A stretch of DNA of 64,000 nt from NCBI GenBank assembly GCA_963789955.1, contig CAWBMV010000034.1:32001-96000 (forward strand), read 5' to 3'. Position numbers and translations under genes: made by a program. This DNA is from an uncultured Candidatus Rokubacteria bacterium (GTDB taxonomy: Bacteria; Methylomirabilota; Methylomirabilia; Rokubacteriales; CSP1-6). The notes beneath the pieces were generated by a model. It saw only the letters and a program-made list of their open reading frames with translations. It was not told the origin of the DNA and did not search any database. Below, one piece after another: positions 35,769 to 49,642 of this stretch (its first letter is position 1; each line of letters begins with the position of its first letter).

Positions 35769-36866
35769 ATGAAAAGGGGAGTCCGTGGGCGAGCACGTCT
35801 CGCCCACGCCCCCGATACTCCCCGGTGCCTCGAGAAAGAACGCGGCCGCTTGCCCACTGACCTGTTCCTCGTCTCCTCGGCGTGGCCGTCGGATTCGCTC
35901 GCTCAGGTCGTGCCGCCCTCGTGCGCCCGCGGTGTTCTCCCGGCTCCTGCCATCACGCCGGACCGGGATGACCTGCTCGTGACGTTTCCAGAGTGGCGAC
36001 CCCGGCAGCCCGCTCACCGCCTGGTGCCGTCGCTCAGCGCGCTTGGCACGAGCCCGCTCGGCTTTCGCTTCGAGCTCTCGGCGTTCGCGGCCGGCGCTTG
36101 GTCGCCCTGGATCGCCGGCGCCACGGTGGGGCGAGCGGGATTCGCCGCGGGCACCGCGCGTTCGGCGACCCTCGTGTGCGAGATCGATGAGTTCATCGCG
36201 CACCCGCCGGCCGAGCGCGTCCGGATGGTCCTGCGCGCGAACGCCGACGGGCCGGCCGCCTCGCTATCCCCGTGGTGCGCGTCGTTGTCCTCGTGGAGTC
36301 CCGGAGGCGAAGAGTCGCTCGGCGCCGGCGGCGCCCGCCTGGTCGTTCCGGCGCTCAGCCAGATGGAGGAGGCCGCCACGATCCGACATCGCGTCTGCTC
36401 GCCGACGTGCGTGGCGATGGTGCTCGGGTACTACGGTCGTCGCGTGGCGGTCGCGGACCTCGCCCGCGAGATGTTCCAGCCTGAGCTGGATATTTATGGT
36501 GTGTGGCCGGCGGCGATACGGGCCGCGGGTCGCCTCGGGATCGGTGGCTACCTCCTGCGCTTTCCCGACTGGGGCGCCGCGGCGTGGTGTCTCGAGCGTG
36601 GCATGCCGGTGATCGCGTCGGTTCGCTACGGCCCGGGCGAGCTGAGCGATGCGGCGATCGCGGAAACGACGGGACATCTGCTCGTGCTGACGGGCTATGC
36701 CGGAGACGACGTGTTCGTCAACGACCCTGCCGCGCCCCGGGCCTCGGAGGTCGTGCGCCGCTATCGGCTCGACGAGCTCCGCCGGGTCTGGCTCACGCGC
36801 TCGGGCATCGGCTATGTGCTGTTCGGCGCGACCGCGCCACCGCGGGACGCCGCGCCCGGGCGTTGA
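35769..36866 (+). CDS. Peptidase C39-like family protein
   Basis: VPALSQM..CSPTCVAMVL.YYG, GHLLVLTGY, VFVNDPA (Gln/Cys/His/Asp papain-like set); start uncertain. Confidence 0.8.
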   Translation: MKRGVRGRARLAHAPDTPRCLEKERGRLPTDLFLVSSAWPSDSLAQVVPPSCARGVLPAPAITPDRDDLLVTFPEWRPRQPAHRLVPSLSALGTSPLGFRFELSAFAAGAWSPWIAGATVGRAGFAAGTARSATLVCEIDEFIAHPPAERVRMVLRANADGPAASLSPWCASLSSWSPGGEESLGAGGARLVVPALSQMEEAATIRHRVCSPTCVAMVLGYYGRRVAVADLAREMFQPELDIYGVWPAAIRAAGRLGIGGYLLRFPDWGAAAWCLERGMPVIASVRYGPGELSDAAIAETTGHLLVLTGYAGDDVFVNDPAAPRASEVVRRYRLDELRRVWLTRSGIGYVLFGATAPPRDAAPGR

Positions 36867-36904
36867 GTGGTCCCACGTTCTGGGTGCGATACAATGCGAC
36901 GAGT

Positions 36905-37168
36905 ATGCGCAACAAGCTGACATACGGTGTCTTGCTCGTGGCGCTCGCGACGAGCGCGTGCGGCGCCGACAGCCGCGAGTGGATGAAGCTCGATTCAGCG
37001 TACACGACGGCGGAGTTCCGGCGTGACTTCCAGGAATGCACGGTCAAGGGCAAGCTCGACGACGACTGTATGAAGTCACGCGGCTGGGTCGCCGTCACTC
37101 CGCCCAAGGGCGAGCAGAAGAAGGAAGATCCGCTCTCGATGCCGGCCGGCCGCAGTCCTCGCCGCTAG
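36905..37168 (+). CDS. Small lipoprotein with a Cys pair (FQEC...CMKSRGW)
   Basis: Signal peptide ending ATSAC; TACAAT 9 nt upstream of the ATG. Confidence 0.7.
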   Translation: MRNKLTYGVLLVALATSACGADSREWMKLDSAYTTAEFRRDFQECTVKGKLDDDCMKSRGWVAVTPPKGEQKKEDPLSMPAGRSPRR

Positions 37169-37638
37169 ACGGCGCCGCTCTGCTCCTCCATCGGCATGTG
37201 ATCGGCCAGCCGCGAGGCGATGACGCGCACGCGGTCCAGCTCTTCCGAGTCGCCGGCACGTGAGGCGAGCCCTTCGGCGACGCGCATGCACTGCTCCACG
37301 GTCGAGCGATCGCCGAGCATCCCGAATGCCTCCGCTGCGTGCAGCACGCCGTTCAGTGAACGCTGCTGGCGAGCCCGGAAGAACGCGATCCAGTACGTCT
37401 CGCGCGCGCGCGCCGCGGCATCACGCGCGAGCCCGGGGAAGGCGGCGAGACGGAGCGAAGCGCTGGCGACGGTGAGGAGGCCGAGCCACCCGGGGTGGCT
37501 GAGCGCGGCCGAATACGCCTGTCGCCACGCGCGCACCGACTCGCCGGGGTCGCCGCTCAGCAGCGCCTGGTCCATGGCCTGAATGTGGGCTGTCCAGGGG
37601 CCGAGCGTCTCGACCTTGCCGAACATGGGTCGCGCCAT
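37165..37638 (-). CDS. Hypothetical alpha-helical (TPR-like) protein, paralog 1
   Basis: GGAGGT RBS before GTG-ATG; shares WR.AY.AAL, FRAR..SL.GVL and LGDR..V.QC.RVA with the next gene; alternative start at 37698. Confidence 0.7.
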   Translation of the reverse strand: MARPMFGKVETLGPWTAHIQAMDQALLSGDPGESVRAWRQAYSAALSHPGWLGLLTVASASLRLAAFPGLARDAAARARETYWIAFFRARQQRSLNGVLHAAEAFGMLGDRSTVEQCMRVAEGLASRAGDSEELDRVRVIASRLADHMPMEEQSGAV

Positions 37639-37735
37639 CACTGCACCTCCGTCACGCCGTCCGCGTCGCGCGGCGCCTACCGTTTGTAAGAGCTCCATCG
37701 AATCATCCTCTGTGTGAAGTGAAGTGGGCACTGCA

Positions 37736-38308
37736 CTATGGGGTCAGATCCCCGTTTTCGATTCCCGCGGCGCTGGCAGCCCAGCGCTCCGTGAAGGCGC
37801 GGAGGTGCTCCGCGGCGTACGGATCTCTGGACTGGGCGACGACCCTCTGCGCGACGCGAATGCATTGCGCGACGACCTCACGGTCTCCGAGCTCGGCGAA
37901 GCGGTCGGCGGTGATCAGCACACCCGCGAGCGATCCTTCGCTCCGCGCCCGGAACAACGCCGTGAGATAGGCCTGGCGGGCCTTCGCGACCGAGGCTGCC
38001 CGGAATCCCGCCCGGGCCCCCAGGGCTCGATAGGTGTCCGCGACCGCCACCATGCCTTCCCAGTGACGGCTCTTCAGCGCGGCCGCGTAGGCGTCGCGCC
38101 ACAGCAGCTCGGCTCTAGTGAACTCATTTGCAGCCATGGCCTGCTCGACCTTGAGGAGCCGGGCCTGCCAGGCGAGCTGGGCCTCGGTCCCGATGGCGTG
38201 ATCGGCGAGGACATCTTTGACCGTCGCCGCCAACACCATCGGTCCGAGCGTCGAGACGATCGCTGGTAGAAACAAGCAGAGCCAGCGGCTCGACCAGAGG
38301 TCCTTCAT
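37736..38308 (-). CDS. Hypothetical alpha-helical (TPR-like) protein, paralog 2, with hydrophobic N-terminus
   Basis: GGAGG RBS; clear paralogy with 37165..37638. Confidence 0.7.
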   Translation of the reverse strand: MKDLWSSRWLCLFLPAIVSTLGPMVLAATVKDVLADHAIGTEAQLAWQARLLKVEQAMAANEFTRAELLWRDAYAAALKSRHWEGMVAVADTYRALGARAGFRAASVAKARQAYLTALFRARSEGSLAGVLITADRFAELGDREVVAQCIRVAQRVVAQSRDPYAAEHLRAFTERWAASAAGIENGDLTP

Positions 38309-38335
38309 AACGTCCTCCATGAACGCGGTGATAAC

Positions 38336-38350
38336 GCAAGGCCGATACCA
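38336..38350 (-). promoter_or_regulatory. Sigma54 -24/-12 promoter
   Basis: TGGTATCGGCCTTGC (GG-N10-GC, TTGC) just upstream of the paralog pair and divergent from a sigma54 activator. Confidence 0.7.
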
Positions 38351-38461
38351 TCCGGAAATCATCGTTAAAACAGAGTGTTATGAGCAACCGTTCGAACGGG
38401 ACGGACTTCCGCTGGTCAAGAGTTGAACACCGTACTGACCGGCGAGTAAGATGCGGGAACC

Positions 38462-41400
38462 ATGAAGCACCTGGCGGACCTGCTCGGTGAAAGTCCGGGC
38501 ATCCAGGCGATTCGTGATCAGATCGCGAGGCTCCTGACCCGGCAGCAGGATGCGCGCAGGCTGCCGCCGGTGCTCATCGAGGGCGAGACGGGGACCGGCA
38601 AGGGGCTCCTGGCCCGTGCGATTCATCGCGCGGGACCGCGACCCGACGGTCCTTTCGTCGACGTCAACTGCGCCGCAATTCCGGAAACTCTGCTCGAGGC
38701 CGAGATGTTTGGCTTCGAGAAAGGCGCGTTCACCGACGCCCGGCGCTCGAAGCCGGGCCTGCTTCAGACGGCCCATCGGGGGACGATCTTCCTCGACGAG
38801 GTCGGGCTTCTGTCCGAAGGGCTCCAGGCGAAGCTCCTCAAGGTACTCGAGGAGCGGAGCGTGCGCCGGCTCGGCAGCACGCGCGACGAGCCGATCGACG
38901 TCTGGATCCTCACCGCGACGAACGAGAATCTGAAGTCGGCGATCCAGGGGCGCCGCTTCCGGGAGGACCTCTACCACCGTCTCGCCGTGCTGACGCTCTC
39001 GCTGCCGCCGCTCCGCGAGCGCGGCGACGACATCCTCATGCTCGCCGAGCACTATCTCGGTCGAGCCTGCAACGACTACGGCGTGTCGGCGAAGACCCTG
39101 GCCGCCGACGCGCGGGCGGCGCTGCGCGCGTACCCGTGGCCGGGCAACGTCCGCGAGGTCGCCAACCTGATGGAGCGAGTCGCGCTGCTCTCGTCGGATC
39201 CGACCGTGACCGCGGACGCGCTCGGGCTGACGGCGGTCGCGCCGACGAAGGCTGCCGCCGCGGTCACGACACCAGCGGGATCGCCGAGCTCGCTCGACGA
39301 CGCGGTTCGCGACCGGGTGTCCGATGTGCTGAGTCAGACCGGCTGGAACATCTCGCGTACCGCGGCGCTGCTCGGAATCTCGCGAAACACCCTGAGGGCT
39401 CGCATCGACAAGTATGGGCTCCGCGTGGGCGAGGCACCGGCGCCGCCGCCACCAGCGCCGCGCCCCGAGCGGCGGCCGGCCCGCCGCGCTGAGCCGACTC
39501 AGGTCGCTCCCGATGAGGCGGCTGCTCCCGCGGTGGCTGCGCCGCCGCCCGCGCCGGCAGCGCTCGAGTGGGAGCGCCGCCGCGTCACGATGCTGCGCGC
39601 GTCGCTGCTCGCCCCGTCGGCGCCGGAAGCGCTCCTCCAGACCAATCGCGCGCTCGAGCTGTTGCTCGACAAGGTCCGCAGTTTCGGCGGCACGATCGAG
39701 GGTCGCGGACCGACCGGAATCGCCGCCGCGTTCGGCCTCGACCCGACGGAGGACGCGCCGAGCCGCGCGGCGCACGCCGCGATGGCCATCGTCAATGCCG
39801 TCACGCGCGCCCGGCAGGACGCCGGAACGGGTGCCGCCATCAAGGTCGGTGTCCATACGAGTCCGATTCTCGTCGGCCGGGGCACGGGCGTGCCCGAGCT
39901 CGATCTCGAAGGCAAGCAGGCCGCGCTGAGCGTGCTGAACACCTTGATCGGGCGCGGCGACGTCGACAGCGTGATGGTGAGCGAGGCGACGGCGCCGTTT
40001 CTCACGCGCGGATTCGAGTTGCGTGAGCTGGACGGCGAGGAGTACGGGCGCGGGCGCGTGTACACCCTCGTGGGGCGCGGGCGAATGGGCCCCGGTCAGG
40101 CCGGACGCGCCTCCACGTTCGTCGGGCGCAATCGCGAGCTCGAGCTCCTGTCGAGCCGCCTCGAGTCCGCGATGCGCGGCCGCGGGCAGATCGTCGGGAT
40201 CAGCGGCGAGGCGGGGATCGGCAAGTCGCGCTTGATCTTCGAGTTCCGCGAGAGCCTGACGGGCAAGGGGGTGACGTGTCTCGAAGGCCAGTGCCACTCG
40301 CACGGCACCGCGGTGCCCTATCTTCCGATCCTCGACCTGATCCGCGCGGCCTGCGGCATCGAAGAAGGCGACGCGCCCGGGGTCATGGCCGACAAGGCAC
40401 GCTCCACCCTCCTCGAGGCCGGCATGGACCTCCTGGAGACCGCGCCCTATGTTCTGCATCTCCTCGACATCGAACAGGACCCGGAGCGCTTTGCGGCAAT
40501 GACCCCCGACGTGACGAAGGCGCGGATCTTCGACACGCTCCGCCAGCTGACGTTGCGGAAGAGCCGGCAGGCGCCGCTGGTCATCGTGGTCGAGGACCTG
40601 CACTGGATCGACGGCACGTCCGAGGAGTACCTTGCGTCGCTCGCGGAGATTATCCAGGGAGCCCGCGTGCTCATGGTGTGCACGCACCGCGGCGGGTTCC
40701 GACCCTCCTGGATCGAGAAGTCGTATACGACGCAGGTCGCGCTCCAGCCGCTCGCCCCCGAGGAAAGCCTCCACATCGTGAGGTCGGTACTCGGCCCGGA
40801 CGAGCCGGCGGATGCCCTCTACGAGCTGATCGTGGTCAAGGCCGAAGGCAATCCGTTCTTCGTCGAAGAGCTCGCGCGGACCGTCCGCGAGCAGATCGGC
40901 GGCGCGACGCCGATGACGGTGCCCGACACGGTCGAGGAGGTCCTCGGCGGCCGTATCGATCGGCTCGCCCCTGAGGAACGGCGACTGCTCGAGGTCGCGG
41001 CGGTCGTCGGCAAGGACGTGCCGTTCGCGGTGGTCCACGCGGTGGCCGGGCTGACCGAAGACAAGGTCCGACGGATATTCGAGCGTCTCAAGAGCGCCGA
41101 ATTTCTCTACGAGACGAGCCCGGGGCCGGACACCGAGTACACGTTCAAGCACACCCTGACCCACGAGGTCGCGTACGAGCGACTCCTCCCGCAAGCGCGG
41201 CGCGCTCTGCACGCGCGGATCGTCCAGGCGATCGAACGCCTCTATGAGAATCGGCTGGTCGAACAGGTCGACCAGCTCGCCGATCATGCGCTGCGCGGCC
41301 ACGTGTGGGCCAAGGCCGTCGACTATCTGCGCCAGGCAGGGGCGCGCGCGGCGGCCCGCTCGGCGCACCGGGACGCGGTCACGCATCTCGAGCAAGCGCT

Positions 41401-42586
41401 CGTGGCGCTCGGACACTTACCCAAGGACCGCGCATGGACGGAGCAGGCGATCGACATCCGTCTGGATCTCCGGCTGGCGCTGCTCCCGATCGGCGAGCTC
41501 GAGCCGATTCTGGCGCATCTCCGGGAGGCCGAAGCCTTCGCCGACGAGCTGCAGGACCAGCACCGAATCGGCCGAGTGTCGGTCTACATGACCGGCCAGT
41601 ACTATCAGATGGGGCTGCACGAGCGCGCCATCGAGTATGGCAAGCGCACCCAGGCCATCAGCGAGTCCCTGCGCGACTTCAGTCTAGAAGTCGCGACGAA
41701 TGCGTACGTCGGACAGATCCATCTCGGACTCGGCGAGTACCGCTCGGCGACAGCGCTGTTCAGGAAGAACGTCGAAGCCATCGTGGGCGATCTGACGTAC
41801 GAGCGCTTCGGCCTGCCGCAGCTCCCTGCCGTGCATTCGCGGTACTGCCTCGTGCTGTGCTTGGCGGAGATGGGCGAGTTCGCTGAGGGCATCGTGCGCG
41901 GCCAGGAATCCATCCGGATCGCCGAGTCCATCGAGCAGCCGCTGAACCTCACCGCGGCCACCTCCGGACTTGGCAGGCTGTACTACCGCAAGGGCGACCT
42001 CGAGCGCGCCGTCCCCGTTCTCAGGCGGGCATTGGAGCTCAGCCGTACGTGGAATCTCCGGATCTGGTTCCCGCAGGTCGCGACCGCGCTCGGGTCGTGC
42101 TACTCCGCGATGGGACGGCTGACCGATGCGCTGCCCTTGCTGGAGGAAGCGGTCGGGGTTGGTGGCGCGATGCGGCTGTTGAGCGCCCAGGCGCCGGCCC
42201 TGACGGCCCTCGGCGAGGCGCACTTGCTCGCGGGCAAGCTCGCGCAGTCGTCCGAAACGGCTCAGTCCGCGCTGCTCGTGGCGCAGCAGAATGGCCGCCG
42301 CGGCCACGAGGCCTGGGCGCTGCGGCTTCTGGGCGAGCTCGCCCTGTGCCGGCCGGACGCGCCGCTTGCACGGGACCAGTTCACCCGGGCCCTCGCGCTC
42401 ACGACCGCGCTCGACATGCGACCTCTCAGCGCGCACTGCTACTTCGGACTCGGCCGCGCCCTTCGGATGGCGAACGACCACCAAGCCGCCGAACGGCACC
42501 TGGCGACGGCGGTCGATCTATTCCGCGAAATGGACATGGGCTTTTGGCTCGCCCAGGCTTCCACGGAGAAGGACAAGCGAATCTGA
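38462..42586 (+). CDS. Sigma54-dependent activator (AAA+ and Fis HTH) fused to a degenerate class III cyclase, STAND-type ATPase and TPRs
   Basis: GETGTGK, VNCAA, GAFTDA, FLDEV, FREDLYHRL, WPGNVRE, NISRTA.LLGISRNTL; RRVTML..AFG..EDAPSRA..GVHT; GEAGIGKS, EDLHWID, GNPFF, Y.FKH.L; C-terminal helical repeats. Confidence 0.85.
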   Translation: MKHLADLLGESPGIQAIRDQIARLLTRQQDARRLPPVLIEGETGTGKGLLARAIHRAGPRPDGPFVDVNCAAIPETLLEAEMFGFEKGAFTDARRSKPGLLQTAHRGTIFLDEVGLLSEGLQAKLLKVLEERSVRRLGSTRDEPIDVWILTATNENLKSAIQGRRFREDLYHRLAVLTLSLPPLRERGDDILMLAEHYLGRACNDYGVSAKTLAADARAALRAYPWPGNVREVANLMERVALLSSDPTVTADALGLTAVAPTKAAAAVTTPAGSPSSLDDAVRDRVSDVLSQTGWNISRTAALLGISRNTLRARIDKYGLRVGEAPAPPPPAPRPERRPARRAEPTQVAPDEAAAPAVAAPPPAPAALEWERRRVTMLRASLLAPSAPEALLQTNRALELLLDKVRSFGGTIEGRGPTGIAAAFGLDPTEDAPSRAAHAAMAIVNAVTRARQDAGTGAAIKVGVHTSPILVGRGTGVPELDLEGKQAALSVLNTLIGRGDVDSVMVSEATAPFLTRGFELRELDGEEYGRGRVYTLVGRGRMGPGQAGRASTFVGRNRELELLSSRLESAMRGRGQIVGISGEAGIGKSRLIFEFRESLTGKGVTCLEGQCHSHGTAVPYLPILDLIRAACGIEEGDAPGVMADKARSTLLEAGMDLLETAPYVLHLLDIEQDPERFAAMTPDVTKARIFDTLRQLTLRKSRQAPLVIVVEDLHWIDGTSEEYLASLAEIIQGARVLMVCTHRGGFRPSWIEKSYTTQVALQPLAPEESLHIVRSVLGPDEPADALYELIVVKAEGNPFFVEELARTVREQIGGATPMTVPDTVEEVLGGRIDRLAPEERRLLEVAAVVGKDVPFAVVHAVAGLTEDKVRRIFERLKSAEFLYETSPGPDTEYTFKHTLTHEVAYERLLPQARRALHARIVQAIERLYENRLVEQVDQLADHALRGHVWAKAVDYLRQAGARAAARSAHRDAVTHLEQALVALGHLPKDRAWTEQAIDIRLDLRLALLPIGELEPILAHLREAEAFADELQDQHRIGRVSVYMTGQYYQMGLHERAIEYGKRTQAISESLRDFSLEVATNAYVGQIHLGLGEYRSATALFRKNVEAIVGDLTYERFGLPQLPAVHSRYCLVLCLAEMGEFAEGIVRGQESIRIAESIEQPLNLTAATSGLGRLYYRKGDLERAVPVLRRALELSRTWNLRIWFPQVATALGSCYSAMGRLTDALPLLEEAVGVGGAMRLLSAQAPALTALGEAHLLAGKLAQSSETAQSALLVAQQNGRRGHEAWALRLLGELALCRPDAPLARDQFTRALALTTALDMRPLSAHCYFGLGRALRMANDHQAAERHLATAVDLFREMDMGFWLAQASTEKDKRI

Positions 42587-42615
42587 GCGCGTCTCGCGCG
42601 CGCTCGAGCGTCCCG

Positions 42616-42765
42616 CTACTTCGAGGGCTTGCGCACCTTCCCGCCGTATCGGCGCACGACCTTCTCCATCGCTCGCCGTAGCCTCTCGAGACCGGGCTTG
42701 CTCATCGGCCGCTTCACGTTGAAGGACACTCGGACTAGCTTGCCTCTCGGTTGAAGTCTCGGCAT
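42616..42765 (-). CDS. Small basic protein B, 49 aa (MPRLQPRGKLVRVSFNVKRPMSKPGLERLRRAMEKVVRRYGGKVRKPSK)
   Basis: Hand-translated; AGGAGG RBS; 21/49 ungapped identities with 43017..43172. Confidence 0.75.
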   Translation of the reverse strand: MPRLQPRGKLVRVSFNVKRPMSKPGLERLRRAMEKVVRRYGGKVRKPSK

Positions 42766-42767
42766 CG

Positions 42768-42956
42768 TCACGTCCTCCTGGTCTTTCGGAGGGTGGGTCG
42801 CCGGCCGGCGACAGGTTCGACGACGAAGTCCTCGAGCTCGAAGCCGTGACGCCGTGCGAGCCAGACGAGCTCGAGCCGCAGCGCCTCGGCCTCGCGCGCG
42901 TCGAGCTCGCCCTGAATCTGGTATCGCTCACGACGCTCGGTGGATTTCGTCGTCAT
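42768..42956 (-). CDS. Small protein C, 62 aa, acidic core
   Basis: GAGGT RBS; stop codon 2 nt before the start of protein B; same L-x8-RR[H/Y]G register as B. Confidence 0.65.
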   Translation of the reverse strand: MTTKSTERRERYQIQGELDAREAEALRLELVWLARRHGFELEDFVVEPVAGRRPTLRKTRRT

Positions 42957-43016
42957 CGCACTACCTCGCCGCGGCCGCCTCCCGACGGAGCATGGGAGAC
43001 GGCCGCGCACTGGGCT

Positions 43017-43172
43017 CTAACGGGTTTTCTTCTTCTTCTTGATCTTGCCACCGTGCTTCTTCACGAACTTCTCGACTTCCGCCTGCAGCTTGGCCTTTGC
43101 TTTGGCGGTCTTCGGGCGCCTGACCGAAAACGACACCCGGACCTTCTGCCCCGACGGCTTGCTGGTAGGCAT
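43017..43172 (-). CDS. Small Lys-rich protein A, 51 aa (MPTSKPSGQKVRVSFSVRRPKTAKAKAKLQAEVEKFVKKHGGKIKKKKKTR)
   Basis: Hand-translated; AAGGAG RBS; paralog of 42616..42765. Confidence 0.75.
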   Translation of the reverse strand: MPTSKPSGQKVRVSFSVRRPKTAKAKAKLQAEVEKFVKKHGGKIKKKKKTR

Positions 43173-43220
43173 TCAGCGATCTCCTTCGCATAACACATAA
43201 AATGTTCACGGCGTCCGCGG

Positions 43221-44285
43221 CTACGGCCGCGCGTCCTCGATTCCGTCGCCGAGATCGTCGGCATGAAAGATCCCCGCCAAGGTGTCGAGGTTACGGACCA
43301 TATAATAGTCCTCCGTCGCCTCATATTCGCCCCGGACATTCACGGGCCGGCCGAGCGCCAGCCGCACGTAGCTCGATGCCATGTTGTGGCGACCGACGAG
43401 GTCGTACAGGTTGGTGCTCATGCTGAAACGGCCCGCGTTGATCTCCGTCACGCACGGAACGCCGCGTGCGTCCTCCCGGACGTCGAAGCAGTAGATCCCG
43501 CACGCGCGCCGGTCCACGGCGCGCACGGCCGCCTCGCACACCGCCGCCACCCGAGGCTCGTTGACCGTCTTCGCGAGCGCCGCGACCGACGAGGTCCCCG
43601 GCTCACCGTCGAACGGGACGAGGCGCTCGAACGTTTTCGTGAGAACGAGAGTTCCCTCGTGCCACAGGCTCTGGCAGCTGAAATCGCGCCCGGGCAGATA
43701 CTCCGACAAGGTGAACTCGGCCGCGCGCACTCCGCGCATGCGTTCCCAGTACGCGATCCAGCTCCGCGCCTGCGCCGGCGTCTCCACCAGGAGGGCTCCG
43801 AGGCCCCCCTGCCCAGATCGGATCCGGCACCATATCTGTCGCGCGGGCGCCAGACGCCGGAAGAGTCGGGGAATATCGGCGAGCCGCCTCACTGCGTGCG
43901 TGACGGGCGTGGGCACACCGCGGGCCCGCAGGACCATCGCCAGCGCATACTTGTCCTGACACAGCTCGATGACCGACGTCCGCGGCAGGAACACGCGGCG
44001 TCCGAAGGCGAGTCGCGCGCGCCCGATCTGCTTGACGTCGGCGTCCGACGTCGGGATCAGCAGGTCGATCTTTTCGCGTCGAACGAGCGCCCGTAGCGCT
44101 CGAGCACGATCGCGATGCCGGCTCGGCGGGAGCAGATGCTTCGTGTCGGCGGCGGAGGCGCGCAGGGCGAAGCGATCGTCGTGGCAGCCGACGATCCTCG
44201 CCGCCGGCTCGCCGGCTCGCAAACTCCGGATCAGGTTCTCGGCCGGACCGGTTCCCGCGCCGGTCACGAGCAGGCGCGCGGTCAC
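43221..44285 (-). CDS. ATP-grasp ligase (CarB-like/PylC-like N-domain type)
   Basis: LVTGAG, IDLLIPTSD, CQDK, P.T, G.GG.G, SEYLPG, FDVRED..G...TEINAGRF. Confidence 0.85.
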   Translation of the reverse strand: MTARLLVTGAGTGPAENLIRSLRAGEPAARIVGCHDDRFALRASAADTKHLLPPSRHRDRARALRALVRREKIDLLIPTSDADVKQIGRARLAFGRRVFLPRTSVIELCQDKYALAMVLRARGVPTPVTHAVRRLADIPRLFRRLAPARQIWCRIRSGQGGLGALLVETPAQARSWIAYWERMRGVRAAEFTLSEYLPGRDFSCQSLWHEGTLVLTKTFERLVPFDGEPGTSSVAALAKTVNEPRVAAVCEAAVRAVDRRACGIYCFDVREDARGVPCVTEINAGRFSMSTNLYDLVGRHNMASSYVRLALGRPVNVRGEYEATEDYYMVRNLDTLAGIFHADDLGDGIEDARP

Positions 44286-45664
44286 GAGCGTCCTGGCCGG
44301 GGCGAGATTCCGCGCCGGCGGAACGCGGCGAGGATGATCGCCCCATAGCGGCCGCCGAGGACGCGATCGGCGGCGATCATGTTCGCGACGACGCTAGAGT
44401 AAGGGAGACGCTCGTTGCCGCGCGGGCGGTCTCGGCCGGGAAAGTCGTCGACGGAAGTCCGCGCCCACGTCTTCGCGAGGAGACGACCGAAATCGTCGCG
44501 CGCGTCGAGCAGGGCCAGCCGGAATTCCTCCGGGGCCTTCGCGTAGTGGACGGCGAAGCTCCGGCGGAGCTGCCGGAATCGGCGATGGGTCACGGCCGGC
44601 GAGGCTCGATCGATGGCGATCGCGATGGCGCTCTTCGATTCCCTGGCCAATCCGGCCGGAATCGCGCCGCGCCGCACCAGGTACTGCTCGTAGATCTCGA
44701 CGAGGACGTCGAACGCGCCGCCGGTGAAGAGCTTGGAGAACGCGTGCGTGTCGTATTTCGCCTCGGCCGTTGCGACCGATGGCGACCAGATCGTGTCGGA
44801 GTTGAACGCGCTCCGGATCTGGGCACCGCGGCTCGCCTCTCCGAACCGCGAGAGCATGTTTCGTGAGAAGAGACGTCCGCGCGTGTTCGCGAGGAGGCGT
44901 CCGACGACGTGGTCGAAGTGCAGGCACGCGATCAACGCCACGAGGTCGGCGGCGCCTTCCTCGTGGGCGCGATACTCCAGCGTCTTCTTCGAGGCGGTCG
45001 GGTTACCGATGATGGATTTGAGGATCAGGTGTCCCGTCTCGTGCGCGACGACGTCGAAGTTCTCGCACAACCACGCCGGAGCGCTGCGCCGCCGGCCGCG
45101 GCGTCTCGGAAGGGAATAGCCGAACTCGAGAAAGCCCTCACCCGACCACGCGTTGTCGGTCTCGGCGCGCGGAATGAGCTCGAGGTGTCGGTGCTCGCGA
45201 TCTCGGAAGAACCAGACGATCCGGTGGCCGAGGTAGTGCTCCCAGATCTCGAGCACGCACCGGACGGTCGCGAACGCGTTGGCGGCCGAGAACGCCCGCG
45301 TGCCCACTCTGACGTGATCGAAGTGCCCGCGATGGGCCTTGACCGGCGGGTGACGCGGGTCTCCGGGCGGATAGGGCGGACGCCAGCGCGGATCGCCGAC
45401 GGCTGAATCCGAGTAGGGCAGCTTCCATTTGTACGGGCGGCGCCCATTGGTGTCGATCACGCGGATTCTCGAGTCCGACGGTCCTGGACCGATGGTACCC
45501 GGGCGCGAGGCGACGTGGACGGTCAGCGGCGCGGCGAAGCCCTCGACGCTGCTTGCCTGCTGATAGATTCGAAAACGGGTGCCCCGCGGATCGAAGCGGA
45601 ATCGAGCCGAGGGCTCCCCGTGTGGGCGTACCGAGCCTCGTCGAGACGATGATCGTCGTGCCAT
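44282..45664 (-). CDS. Cytosolic zinc metallopeptidase, gluzincin (M4/M36-like)
   Basis: DNAWSG...LEFGY, DVVAHETGH, downstream HEEGAAD, and DTH; no signal peptide; stop overlaps the ATP-grasp start. Confidence 0.75.
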   Translation of the reverse strand: MARRSSSRRGSVRPHGEPSARFRFDPRGTRFRIYQQASSVEGFAAPLTVHVASRPGTIGPGPSDSRIRVIDTNGRRPYKWKLPYSDSAVGDPRWRPPYPPGDPRHPPVKAHRGHFDHVRVGTRAFSAANAFATVRCVLEIWEHYLGHRIVWFFRDREHRHLELIPRAETDNAWSGEGFLEFGYSLPRRRGRRRSAPAWLCENFDVVAHETGHLILKSIIGNPTASKKTLEYRAHEEGAADLVALIACLHFDHVVGRLLANTRGRLFSRNMLSRFGEASRGAQIRSAFNSDTIWSPSVATAEAKYDTHAFSKLFTGGAFDVLVEIYEQYLVRRGAIPAGLARESKSAIAIAIDRASPAVTHRRFRQLRRSFAVHYAKAPEEFRLALLDARDDFGRLLAKTWARTSVDDFPGRDRPRGNERLPYSSVVANMIAADRVLGGRYGAIILAAFRRRGISPRPGRS

Positions 45665-45676
45665 GGCATCAATGCG

Positions 45677-45692
45677 GCGAACGTGGTGCCAA
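45677..45692 (-). promoter_or_regulatory. Candidate sigma54 -24/-12 promoter
   Basis: TTGGCACCACGTTCGC (TGGCAC, GG-N10-GC); predicted start near 45665, adjacent to the ATG at 45664. Confidence 0.55.
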
Positions 45693-47686: not shown

Positions 47687-47962
47687 GTGAAGAAGTCCAA
47701 TCTGATCATCGCCTCGGCGGTGGCGGCGGCCTTCGCCCTGCCGCTCATCTCGGATGCCCAGGGCGGTCCCGCGCCGAAGCCGACGTTCGAATCCGAGAAG
47801 TGCTACGGCATCGCGAAAGCGGGCAAGAACGACTGCCAGACCGCCAACTCGTCCTGCGCCGGCACCTCGAAGCGCGACAGCCAGGGTGACGCGTGGATCT
47901 ACATGCCGGCGGGTGCCTGCGGCAAGGTCGTCGGCGGCAGCCTCATGCCCAAGCGGGCCTGA
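47687..47962 (+). CDS. DUF2282 bufferin-type RiPP precursor (BufA1-like)
   Basis: Signal peptide; EKCYGIAKAGKNDC..SCAG..W...PAG.C.K..GGSL, four Cys. Confidence 0.85.
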   Translation: MKKSNLIIASAVAAAFALPLISDAQGGPAPKPTFESEKCYGIAKAGKNDCQTANSSCAGTSKRDSQGDAWIYMPAGACGKVVGGSLMPKRA

Positions 47963-47994
47963 TCGATCTCGATGAACGGCGGGCGACAGGTGCC

Positions 47995-48870
47995 ATGATC
48001 GCGCGCGACGATCGCTTGGCAACGATTCCGGCTCGTGCCGGGATCGGCCTGCGGGCGCCGCACGTCGCCGAGGTCATGGCGACCCGGCCTGCCATCGCGT
48101 TCCTCGAAGTGCACACGGAGAACTATCTGGGCGGCGGACCGGCCGTTGCCGCGCTCGAGCGGCTGCGGCACGATTATCCGGTCTCGCTGCACGGAGTCGG
48201 CCTCTCGCTCGCAGGCGCCGATCCGCTGGACGATCGTCATCTGCTCCGCGTGAAAGGGCTGGTCGACCGGATCCAGCCCGCGCTCGTCTCGGAGCATCTC
48301 GCGTGGAGCGTCGGCGGCGGCGCCTATCTCAATCATCTGCTGCCGCTGCCGTACGACGCCGTTCGCCTCGAGGCGACGAGCCGGCGCATCGAGCGGATCC
48401 AGGAGACGCTCGGCCGCAGGATCCTCGTCGAGAACCCGGCACGCTATCTGCGCTTCCGCGGGTCACCCATTCCCGAGCCCGGGTTCCTCCTCGAGCTCAG
48501 TCGCCGGACCGGATGCGGCCTTTTGCTGGACATCAACAACGTCTACGTCAGCGCCCGCAACTTCGACGAGGATCCCGGCGAATACCTCGATGCCATGAAG
48601 GCCGGCGCGATCGGCGAGATTCATCTGGCCGGCCACGCCACGAACGACGCTGACGGCCGCGCGATCCTGATCGACGACCACGGCTCGCGCGTCGCCGAGG
48701 CGGTGTGGGGCCTCTATCGCGCCGCGCTCACGCAGCTCGGTCCGGTACCGACCTTGGTCGAGTGGGATACGAATCTGCCGGAGCTCGCCGTGCTGCTCGC
48801 CGAGGCGGAGCAGGCGGAGCGATCCTTGCGGCCAACCCAGAGTGGCGAAGACCGTGTCGTCGCCGCGTGA
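47995..48870 (+). CDS. DUF692 multinuclear non-heme iron oxidase (MNIO, BufB-like)
   Basis: GIGLR.PH, EVH.EN, HGVGLS, SEHLAW, EN, LLDINNVYV, EIHLAGH, IDDHG, EWD. Confidence 0.9.
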   Translation: MIARDDRLATIPARAGIGLRAPHVAEVMATRPAIAFLEVHTENYLGGGPAVAALERLRHDYPVSLHGVGLSLAGADPLDDRHLLRVKGLVDRIQPALVSEHLAWSVGGGAYLNHLLPLPYDAVRLEATSRRIERIQETLGRRILVENPARYLRFRGSPIPEPGFLLELSRRTGCGLLLDINNVYVSARNFDEDPGEYLDAMKAGAIGEIHLAGHATNDADGRAILIDDHGSRVAEAVWGLYRAALTQLGPVPTLVEWDTNLPELAVLLAEAEQAERSLRPTQSGEDRVVAA

Positions 48871-49642
48871 GCTCGAGCGTGACTTCGCGGCCGCATTGCT
48901 CGGCGGCCCCGAGGATCCGGTCGTCGCCGAGATCCAGGGCGACGGGCTCGATCCGGCGGCGCGACTCGCGATCTATCGCCACCACGTCTCGGCGAGCCTG
49001 ACCGAGGCGCTCGAGGCGACGTACCCGGTCGTCGTCCGGCTCGTCGACCGCCGCTTCTTCGCGTACGCGGCCGACCAGTTCATCCGCCGCCACCCGCCGG
49101 CGGGGCCGTGCCTCTTCGAGTACGGAGAGGCGCTCGCCGATTTTCTGGCGACGTTCCCGGCATCGCGGCACCTGGCCTATCTCCCCGACGTCGCCCGGCT
49201 CGAGTGGGCGCTCAATCGCGCGCTCCACGCCGAAGACGCCGTCGCGCTCGACCCGAGATGGTTGGCCGCGCTCCCGCCGGACGAGGTCGGCGGGGTGCGA
49301 CTGCGGCTCCATCCGTCTGTGTCGCTTCTGGAGTCGCCCTGGCCGATCGACCGAATCTGGCACGCGAATCAGCCGGACGCCGATCCGGACGCGACGGTGA
49401 GCCTCGACCAGGGCGGGGCGCGTCTCGAGGTCTATCGTCTCGAGGACGGCGTGGTGTTCCGGACGATCGCGGCGGATGCGTACGCCTTCCGGATCGCGCT
49501 GGCGTCCGATCTCGATCTGCAGAGCGCGGTAGGTGCGGCGCGGCGCGCCGACCCGAGCTTCAACCTGACCGATGCGCTGCGTGAGCTGCTGGACGACGGG
49601 CTCATCGTCGACGCGGTTTCGCCGACCAAGCGTCCATGCTGA
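48854..49642 (+). CDS. DUF2063 MNIO partner protein (BufC-like)
   Basis: RLAIYR....L..AL..TYPVV..LV...FF, YL.DVARLEWA, LHPS. Confidence 0.85.
   Translation: MSSPRELERDFAAALLGGPEDPVVAEIQGDGLDPAARLAIYRHHVSASLTEALEATYPVVVRLVDRRFFAYAADQFIRRHPPAGPCLFEYGEALADFLATFPASRHLAYLPDVARLEWALNRALHAEDAVALDPRWLAALPPDEVGGVRLRLHPSVSLLESPWPIDRIWHANQPDADPDATVSLDQGGARLEVYRLEDGVVFRTIAADAYAFRIALASDLDLQSAVGAARRADPSFNLTDALRELLDDGLIVDAVSPTKRPC

Follow-up and report, generated by a model that had tools for sequence, protein, structure and literature searches.

Two undescribed small-protein families at the core of a mobile ATP-grasp ligase-sensor cassette

Results

Overview of the cassette

Two families of small proteins, designated X and Y, were found to form the core of a mobile ligase-sensor cassette. 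Both families are undescribed, i.e., they are absent from Pfam, NCBIfam, PADLOC and the PDB. The window, i.e., the whole stretch of 64,000 nucleotides that was analyzed, is from an uncultured Candidatus Rokubacteria bacterium. The cassette consists of an optional peptidase gene, the gene of an ATP-grasp ligase (G), X and Y, and it faces a large sensor gene (R) tail to tail. In the window family X comprises A and B, and family Y is represented by C. The features are as follows:

38462-42586, plus strand: R, sigma54-activator AAA+ / HTH / degenerate class III cyclase / STAND (AAA_16) / TPR protein, transcribed toward the operon
42616-42765, minus strand: B, second copy of family X, 49 aa, located between Y and R
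42768-42956, minus strand: C, family Y, 62 aa, predicted beta-alpha-beta, with nearly invariant E24, L28 and E29 on the helix
42774-42779, minus strand: Shine-Dalgarno-like site of B, within the final codons of C
42964-42967, minus strand: Shine-Dalgarno-like site of C, read from the sequence
43017-43172, minus strand: A, first copy of family X, 51 aa, basic, predicted beta-alpha-beta, Lys-rich at its tail and preceded by a strong ribosome-binding site
43181-43186, minus strand: Shine-Dalgarno-like site of A, read from the sequence
43221-44285, minus strand: G, ATP-grasp amide ligase of the PRK12767 / PylC-like / ATPgrasp_Ter neighborhood, E-x-N-x-G-R motif intact
44282-45664, minus strand: M, thermolysin/M36-like zinc peptidase with HExxH and a downstream Glu, optional, start codon uncertain

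Coding evidence for the three small genes

The three small open reading frames of the first-pass annotation are all present, and they lie on the minus strand. Each ATG is preceded by a GGAG or GAGG word at a distance of 7-9 nt. The dN/dS analysis of homologues, which had been proposed as a check, yielded pooled values against the six closest loci of 0.21 for A, 0.27 for C and 0.22 for B, compared with 0.17 for the neighboring enzyme. Both results back the coding status, and the range of 0.21-0.27 indicates purifying selection. A and B align without gaps and are identical at 21 of 49 positions, as had been noted, and none of 5000 shuffles reached this alignment score. The same codon was used at just 10 of the 21 identical residues, and pS was 0.71 versus a pN of 0.42, which bears out the protein-level selection that had been deduced from the codon divergence. 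For B, 14 close homologues were found. By these comparisons A, B and C were shown to evolve as translated genes under purifying selection.

Parts of the window are contained in 20 RNA runs, and in one of the four that were examined as contigs a 557-nt contig spans 42691-43247. The coverage was spread across all genes, and, thus, the RNA contigs do not establish transcription or its level. Searches of Pfam, NCBIfam and PADLOC yielded no meaningful match for A, B or C, and the best match of an atlas search with C (score 0.83) carries no name. The proposal of a new small-protein family therefore held, in the form of an X/Y pair.

Families X and Y

In pairwise comparisons the similarity of C to A and to B was not significant (p 0.05 and 0.16, respectively). 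The family profiles matched across the strand-helix-strand region with an hhalign probability of 88-94%, and the score of 32 compares with at most 9.5 in 60 column-shuffled controls. The earlier claim that C is a relative of A and B thus stood for the family profiles, but not for the single sequences. A common ancestry of X and Y is likely, with the reservation that the shared pattern by itself could also yield the profile match. The register that had been pointed out, L26-G38 versus L29-G41, is present in the sequence.

The search with the Y profile led to 458 clusters at 50% identity. The best 150 matches comprised 149 stand-alone proteins of 43-100 aa and one repeat protein of 4665 aa, which was dropped as spurious. 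Fused forms of Y were not found among 8000 longer candidates, which is weak evidence. Within the 150 profile-selected sequences, E24 was conserved in 99%, L28 in 99% and E29 in 100%. In the paired X/Y loci the respective numbers were 92, 94 and 95 of 98, and both Glu residues were kept also in the most divergent Bradyrhizobium copies, which the Y profile had missed. Family X is much more variable. The median identity among 84 distinct sequences was 22%, and the hydrophobic pattern alone was conserved. X proteins contain a median of 10 Lys residues and have a median net charge of +15.5, but 4 of the 84 are at or below zero (lowest value -9), and invariant basic residues are lacking. A strong ribosome-binding site precedes X in most loci. 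C had been described as acidic. This applies to its core, with a charge of about -5 across residues 10-47 (counted from the sequence), but not to the whole protein, which has a net charge of +3, nor to the Y family, which is about neutral (median -1, 150 sequences).

The predicted beta-alpha-beta shape was supported for both families. The best PDB sequence matches of X were designed ferredoxin-fold proteins (E 0.002), and the AlphaFold model of Y (pLDDT 81.7) has a confident helix at residues 20-37 with extended, unpaired flanks. In a structural search the Y model matched ferredoxin-like and ribosomal proteins weakly and over one half only (Z at most 3.8). These sequence and structure-search results would be consistent with a half fold that depends on a partner. 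X and Y have the beta-alpha-beta pattern in common with ferredoxin-like half folds (designed ferredoxins, S6, MinE, ACT) and with the N-terminal strand-helix of STAS domains, and all these matches were weak and partial. Covariation between X and Y over 98 pairs had a maximal z of 5.4, compared with values up to 5.9 in permutations, in a shallow alignment (Neff 55). The net charges of X and Y were uncorrelated (rho 0.07, p 0.56, 75 pairs), and thus the idea that basic and acidic partners pair by charge complementarity was not upheld as a rule for the two families.

Several identities were rejected. Kinship with ribosomal protein S6, about which the first-pass annotation had speculated, was not supported: no S6 match in Pfam or PDB sequences was obtained with 21 X and 150 Y members, and the structural Z of 2.9 was generic, i.e., on par with unrelated folds. 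The STAS domain has about 110 aa and a conserved phospho-Ser region. Y matched it in 3 of 150 members, weakly and over the first strand-helix alone; the PDB match to SpoIIAA covered a strand-helix stretch of about 20 residues (E 0.03). The ACT domain has a ferredoxin-like fold, and an ACT match was obtained for none of the 21 X and 150 Y members. The catalytic residue of 4-oxalocrotonate tautomerase is Pro1, and a Pro at position 2 is present in just 58% of X.

Gene order, linkage and spread

In total 107 G loci were gathered, which were not deduplicated; two distant loci were left out. Among the 84 loci with a whole G and at least 800 nt downstream, X was present in 81, Y in 79 and both in 76, while 5 lacked Y and 3 lacked X. 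In most loci X is the gene right after G. Two copies of X were found in just 10 of the 84, so the X-Y-X order, to which the first-pass annotation had drawn attention, is not the norm but a local variant. Where at least 1500 nt follow G (68 loci), R was convergent in 66 and lacking in 2. As Y, X or R are missing in some loci (including R in L213), neither pairing is obligate.

The analysis of 251 genomes of the host class revealed G in 94 and Y in 92 of them. The two occurred together in 91, while 3 had just G, 1 had just Y and 156 had neither. No test statistic is given, because the genomes are related and incomplete. These tallies include two genomes that are flagged as unpublished and require the depositors' permission (G076, G217), and no other claim rests on them. 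G was also found in 11 of 201 sampled Bradyrhizobium genomes. The order G-X-Y was present in all 10 loci examined there, together with R in 9 of 10, between unrelated flanking genes and at different chromosomal sites. All four genes were retained in two rearranged loci (L179, L187). X next to R without G was found once (L006), and Y next to R without G also once (L180), which ties the small genes to R; these G-less cases are 2 genomes versus 91 with both G and Y. By the sequence comparisons A, B and C were shown to be homologous to each other and to be inherited and transferred together with G and R, and the distribution indicates that the cassette crosses phyla, i.e., that it is mobile.

No other gene recurred as a constant neighbor in the 107 loci, and this includes biosynthetic enzymes and transporters. 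X, Y, G and M had no match to a defense system in PADLOC, and the neighbors of the cassette are metabolic or housekeeping genes.

Some single loci deviate from the general picture. Two contigs labeled Nitrospirae and Acidobacteria (L013, L016) carry cassettes identical or very close to those of Rokubacteria; they are probably mis-binned and were not counted as transfer. In L042:2485-2748 a single open reading frame joins the first 35 X residues in frame to Y, which is either a natural deletion or an assembly error. In L092:1550-6386 the X-Y pair is present twice, and each pair faces an R tail to tail; of one R just a C-terminal remnant is left. The window itself also contains, at 47687-49642 on the plus strand, genes for a DUF2282 small protein, an MbnB/TglH/ChrH (DUF692) enzyme and a DUF2063 protein in a row, i.e., a RiPP cluster of known type; the gene that follows is presumably DoxX-like.

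The Y/R junction and the origin of B

Y and R overlap in antiparallel orientation by exactly 9 nt, and in codon register, at 38 of 67 distinct junctions. The second-last codon of R is CTA, TTA or TCA, i.e., a reversed stop codon, in 42 of 70 distinct tails, compared with 0.5% elsewhere in R. The Y stop is thus preserved inside R, which is further evidence for the translation of Y. Three relatives that carry B (L040, L043, L052) have a relic of the 9 nt at the end of R, behind B, and a close relative without B (L045) has the plain Y/R overlap. Therefore B is best explained by a late duplication of A in this lineage, with probable insertion between Y and R.

The ligase G

G matched PRK12767 (E 4e-21) and the PDB entries 2pn1 and 3vpd, and it conserves K112, E195, D268, E281, N283 and R286. 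By fold homology and by these metal- and ATP-binding residues G is assigned to the ATP-grasp superfamily, the members of which activate a carboxylate and then join it to an amine. The closest named families, and the nearest neighbors in sequence and features, are PylC-like and ATPgrasp_Ter (PF21360 and PF15632, which we take to be the PylC and Ter-cluster ATP-grasp ligases). In contrast to these, P0004 falls below the PF21360 cut-off, and no pyrrolysine or Ter genes are nearby. The known or predicted substrates of PylC and Ter enzymes are small molecules. The PDB relatives of G also include an enzyme of S6 modification and LysX (1uc8/1uc9). Assignments to RimK (TIGR00768, 17.5 bits versus a cut-off of 143.4) and to the LysX type (TIGR02144, 19 bits versus 276) were rejected, and no match of G to a graspetide-ligase family was obtained in family searches. 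The uncharacterized ATP-grasp clade of G comprises 2166 proteins at E<=1e-30 among 8000 scored.

Distant relatives of G were found on viral contigs (seven, at most 35% identity) and on plasmids (one match). X, Y, M and R were absent around the four viral relatives that were checked out of the seven. In a sample of Burkholderiales, G was present in 2 of 301, and the cassette was not readable there. On one phage contig (L222:2764-3810) a G relative with 35% identity lies, by eye, between terminase-like and portal-like genes, a hint that the clade of G can act on proteins. In one Bradyrhizobium locus (L215:8133-9245) an internal TAA splits G, and X, Y and R look intact.

The peptidase M and the interchangeable peptidase slot

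The motifs of M, HExxH and the downstream Glu, were present in all 41 sequences listed. Foldseek matched M to 7qp3 (E 8e-6) and to M4 enzymes, with an identity of only 10-13%. By motifs and predicted fold M is assigned to the thermolysin/M36-like gluzincins. A signal peptide was not seen by eye. M was found in 43 of the 251 genomes of the host class, 39 of which have G. Viewed from the ligase, 39 of the 94 genomes with G have M, and M lies upstream of G in 42 of 72 loci.

Four unrelated peptidase types alternate next to G, and many loci have no adjacent peptidase. In addition to M, these are S8 subtilases (L024, L178), PF00144 hydrolases (L026, L218, L220, L221) and, located between G and X, a protein with HExxH and an N-terminus that resembles a signal peptide (L037, L185, L186, L187; by eye, no Pfam match). 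M and S8 have endopeptidase folds, and PF00144 hydrolases often act on small peptides. At one of the loci with a subtilase (L178:6815-12866, genus g3) a second, Glu-poor Y lies upstream of G at a distance of about 4.5 kb and is followed by an amidohydrolase-like gene and the S8 peptidase.

The sensor R and its regulation

R occurs in two architectures, a sigma54-activator type, to which the R of the window belongs, and a zinc-ribbon/cyclase type. The metal-binding Asp of the cyclase domain is absent in the sigma54 type (4 of 4 readable sequences) and kept in the zinc-ribbon/cyclase type (6 of 6). The host genome encodes sigma54, and it contains 15 related cyclase/STAND/TPR open reading frames. 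Cassette-linked R proteins do not form an exclusive clade, as four unlinked paralogues from the same genome nest among them. In PADLOC R matched generic AAA, TPR and cyclase models alone. To our knowledge, few inputs of cyclase/STAND/TPR proteins have been described.

A sigma54-promoter-like site with 9 of 11 matches is located just 5' of M (about 45677-45691, minus strand). It was rejected as a conserved site, because none of the 20 loci with a sigma54-type R scored at least 9, compared with 39 of 1500 background windows. In the promoter and terminator scan a sigma70 promoter was not found, and terminator-like sites were no more frequent than expected by chance. No operator or promoter conserved for the cassette was found. 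Between the stops of R and B a 7-bp G+C hairpin without a T run (42585-42605) was seen by eye, which is absent from the terminator scan. Upstream of R the region 36794-38362 contains two related minus-strand open reading frames without a Pfam match (37165-37731 and 37736-38362), and a small plus-strand open reading frame ends at 37168. A sequence like this region recurs behind R in 19 loci (cluster 6), and the open reading frames in 36794-38362 are possible targets of R.

Discussion

Building on the linkage, homology and selection described above, we infer that X and Y pair, that the pair is modified, and that R reads its state. X and Y would each form one half of a ferredoxin-like fold and complete it by pairing. 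G would use ATP to activate a carboxylate of the X/Y unit, most simply that of a conserved Y Glu, and convert it to an amide, with a free amino acid or a Lys of X as the amine partner. A peptidase, cassette-borne or from elsewhere in the cell, would strip the tag or degrade the X/Y unit. The STAND/TPR part of R would sense tagged versus untagged X/Y and switch the N-terminal output, i.e., cAMP production in the zinc-ribbon/cyclase type and sigma54-dependent transcription in the type present in the window. B, as a recent additional X, could serve as a second partner for Y. Such a writer-eraser-reader switch is our preferred reading, and it is held tentatively. It is favored because no pathway surrounds G, whose neighbors are instead a sensor, two small proteins and a peptidase that can be replaced, and because one small protein has fixed Glu residues while the other has many Lys residues. 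Counted against it are the presence of M in less than half of the genomes with G, the many loci with no peptidase beside G, the absence of X or Y from 8 of 84 loci, the non-exclusive R clade, the uncorrelated charges of X and Y, an X-Y covariation within the range of the permutations, and the small-molecule substrates of the named families closest to G. In addition, the frozen 9-nt overlap could keep Y and R together without a functional contact.

Among known systems the cassette would work most like RimABK of Pseudomonas, in which, according to the accessible text of the source, the tagging of S6/RpsF is controlled by an ATP-grasp ligase together with a protease that is co-transcribed with it and an enzyme of cyclic-nucleotide metabolism (PMC7343187). 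The likeness, as far as that text describes RimABK, comprises the ligase as writer, the protease as eraser, the cyclic-nucleotide link and the reversible logic of tagging and removal. The differences are that G lies far below the RimK cut-off, that the candidate substrates are dedicated proteins of 50-60 aa inside the operon instead of S6, that RimA and RimB are lacking and the peptidase is M4/M36-like, S8, PF00144 or absent, and that the partner is a cyclase/STAND/TPR sensor instead of a phosphodiesterase.

A second comparison concerns LysX/ArgX and LysW, an ATP-grasp ligase and a Zn-ribbon carrier with a conserved C-terminal Glu, from which a peptidase releases the cargo. Also in this case a ligase stands beside a small protein with a conserved Glu, plus a peptidase. 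In contrast to LysW, Y has no conserved Cys or Zn-ribbon and no C-terminal Glu; its C-termini are variable and often end in Ser-Ala, and no biosynthetic enzyme recurs in the neighborhood. The acceptor Glu residues of S6 and LysW are C-terminal, whereas the conserved Glu of Y is in the middle of the helix, and thus it may be part of a binding surface.

It is also conceivable, though doubtful, that R is an NLR-like sensor with its own encoded guardee. G would join a Lys of X to a Glu of Y, or tag X/Y, and the conjugate would hold R off or on, until cleavage by a protease of the cassette, of an invader or of a stress response flips the cAMP or sigma54 output. If true, a STAND sensor would here be switched by a protein conjugation that relies on an ATP-grasp enzyme and does without ubiquitin.

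The families closest to G, PylC-like and ATPgrasp_Ter, as well as the PF00144 hydrolases as one of its partner classes, would also suit a switch based on a small molecule. G would make a dipeptide-like ligand for the TPR part of R, the peptidase would clear it, and X/Y would be an unmodified, split ACT-like domain that modulates G or R upon binding of an amino acid or the product; the ferredoxin-like half fold of X/Y would be in line with the ACT fold. We consider this possible, with considerable doubt, as the X and Y members searched yielded no ACT match, no ligand-binding residue is conserved in X, and M and S8 have endopeptidase folds.

That X and Y act directly and unmodified on R, as regulators or chaperones, is unlikely. 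MalT is a STAND protein that is regulated by partner proteins, and R resembles MalT and Avs/NLR-like STAND-TPR proteins in its STAND switch, TPR sensor and N-terminal output domain. It differs in that a class III cyclase or sigma54 activator serves as the output, and we know of no ligase or small-protein pair for this group. G would in this case modify R or an outside target, e.g., a ribosomal protein. The loci with X-R and Y-R without G would be explained, the conserved helix face of Y would suit a protein-binding epitope, and the divergence of X tracks R (rho 0.45) slightly more than G (0.35), in 40 related, non-independent loci. The two G-less genomes stand against 91 with G and Y, however, and X directly follows G in most loci.

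A role of X/Y in DNA or RNA binding, in which they would act in a nucleoid-like manner or regulate translation and G would alter their charge, would suit the high median charge of X and the weak structural resemblance to halves of S6- and S10-type ribosomal proteins (Z at most 3.5), but it is improbable in view of the neutral or acidic X members, the lack of an invariant basic residue and the absence of a conserved operator or promoter from the loci searched.

Least probable of all is that X (or Y) is a RiPP precursor that is cross-linked by G and cut by the peptidase to a secreted or antimicrobial peptide, although X has a strong ribosome-binding site, adjoins the ligase, varies fast and is sometimes duplicated, and although ATP-grasp branches linked to unrelated peptidases are described in the accessible text of a graspetide survey (PMC8939145); by column conservation in 84 X and 150 Y sequences, no leader, double-Gly site or core of Ser/Thr/Lys plus Asp/Glu, as these motifs are defined in that text, was found, X has the hydrophobic pattern of a folded domain along its whole length, no transporter is a constant neighbor, and G matches no graspetide-ligase family. 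The same text reports no precursors and no such sensor for its peptidase-linked branches 7 and 8 (PMC8939145). As far as it goes, the cassette shares with graspetide clusters an ATP-grasp gene with adjoining small open reading frames and interchangeable peptidases, and it differs by X and Y, which are predicted to be folded, paired small proteins without leader and core motifs, and by the fixed STAND partner.

A search of the accessible literature, chiefly main texts from non-subscription journals, brought up no description of the cassette; the accessible main text of PMC7159879 does not mention ATP-grasp.

Conclusions

Taken together, the results suggest a hitherto undescribed on/off switch for bacterial sensors of a class that is common but poorly understood. 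The cassette is a candidate input for cyclase/STAND/TPR sensors, which are common in soil bacteria, and a ligase and two proteins of 50-60 residues move with the sensor between phyla. With X and Y, candidate substrates would be named for the ATP-grasp clade of G for the first time. In Bradyrhizobium the cassette occurs in a form of four genes, about 5.5 kb long, with a cyclase read-out, and, thus, the proposed switch would be directly testable in cya-minus E. coli.
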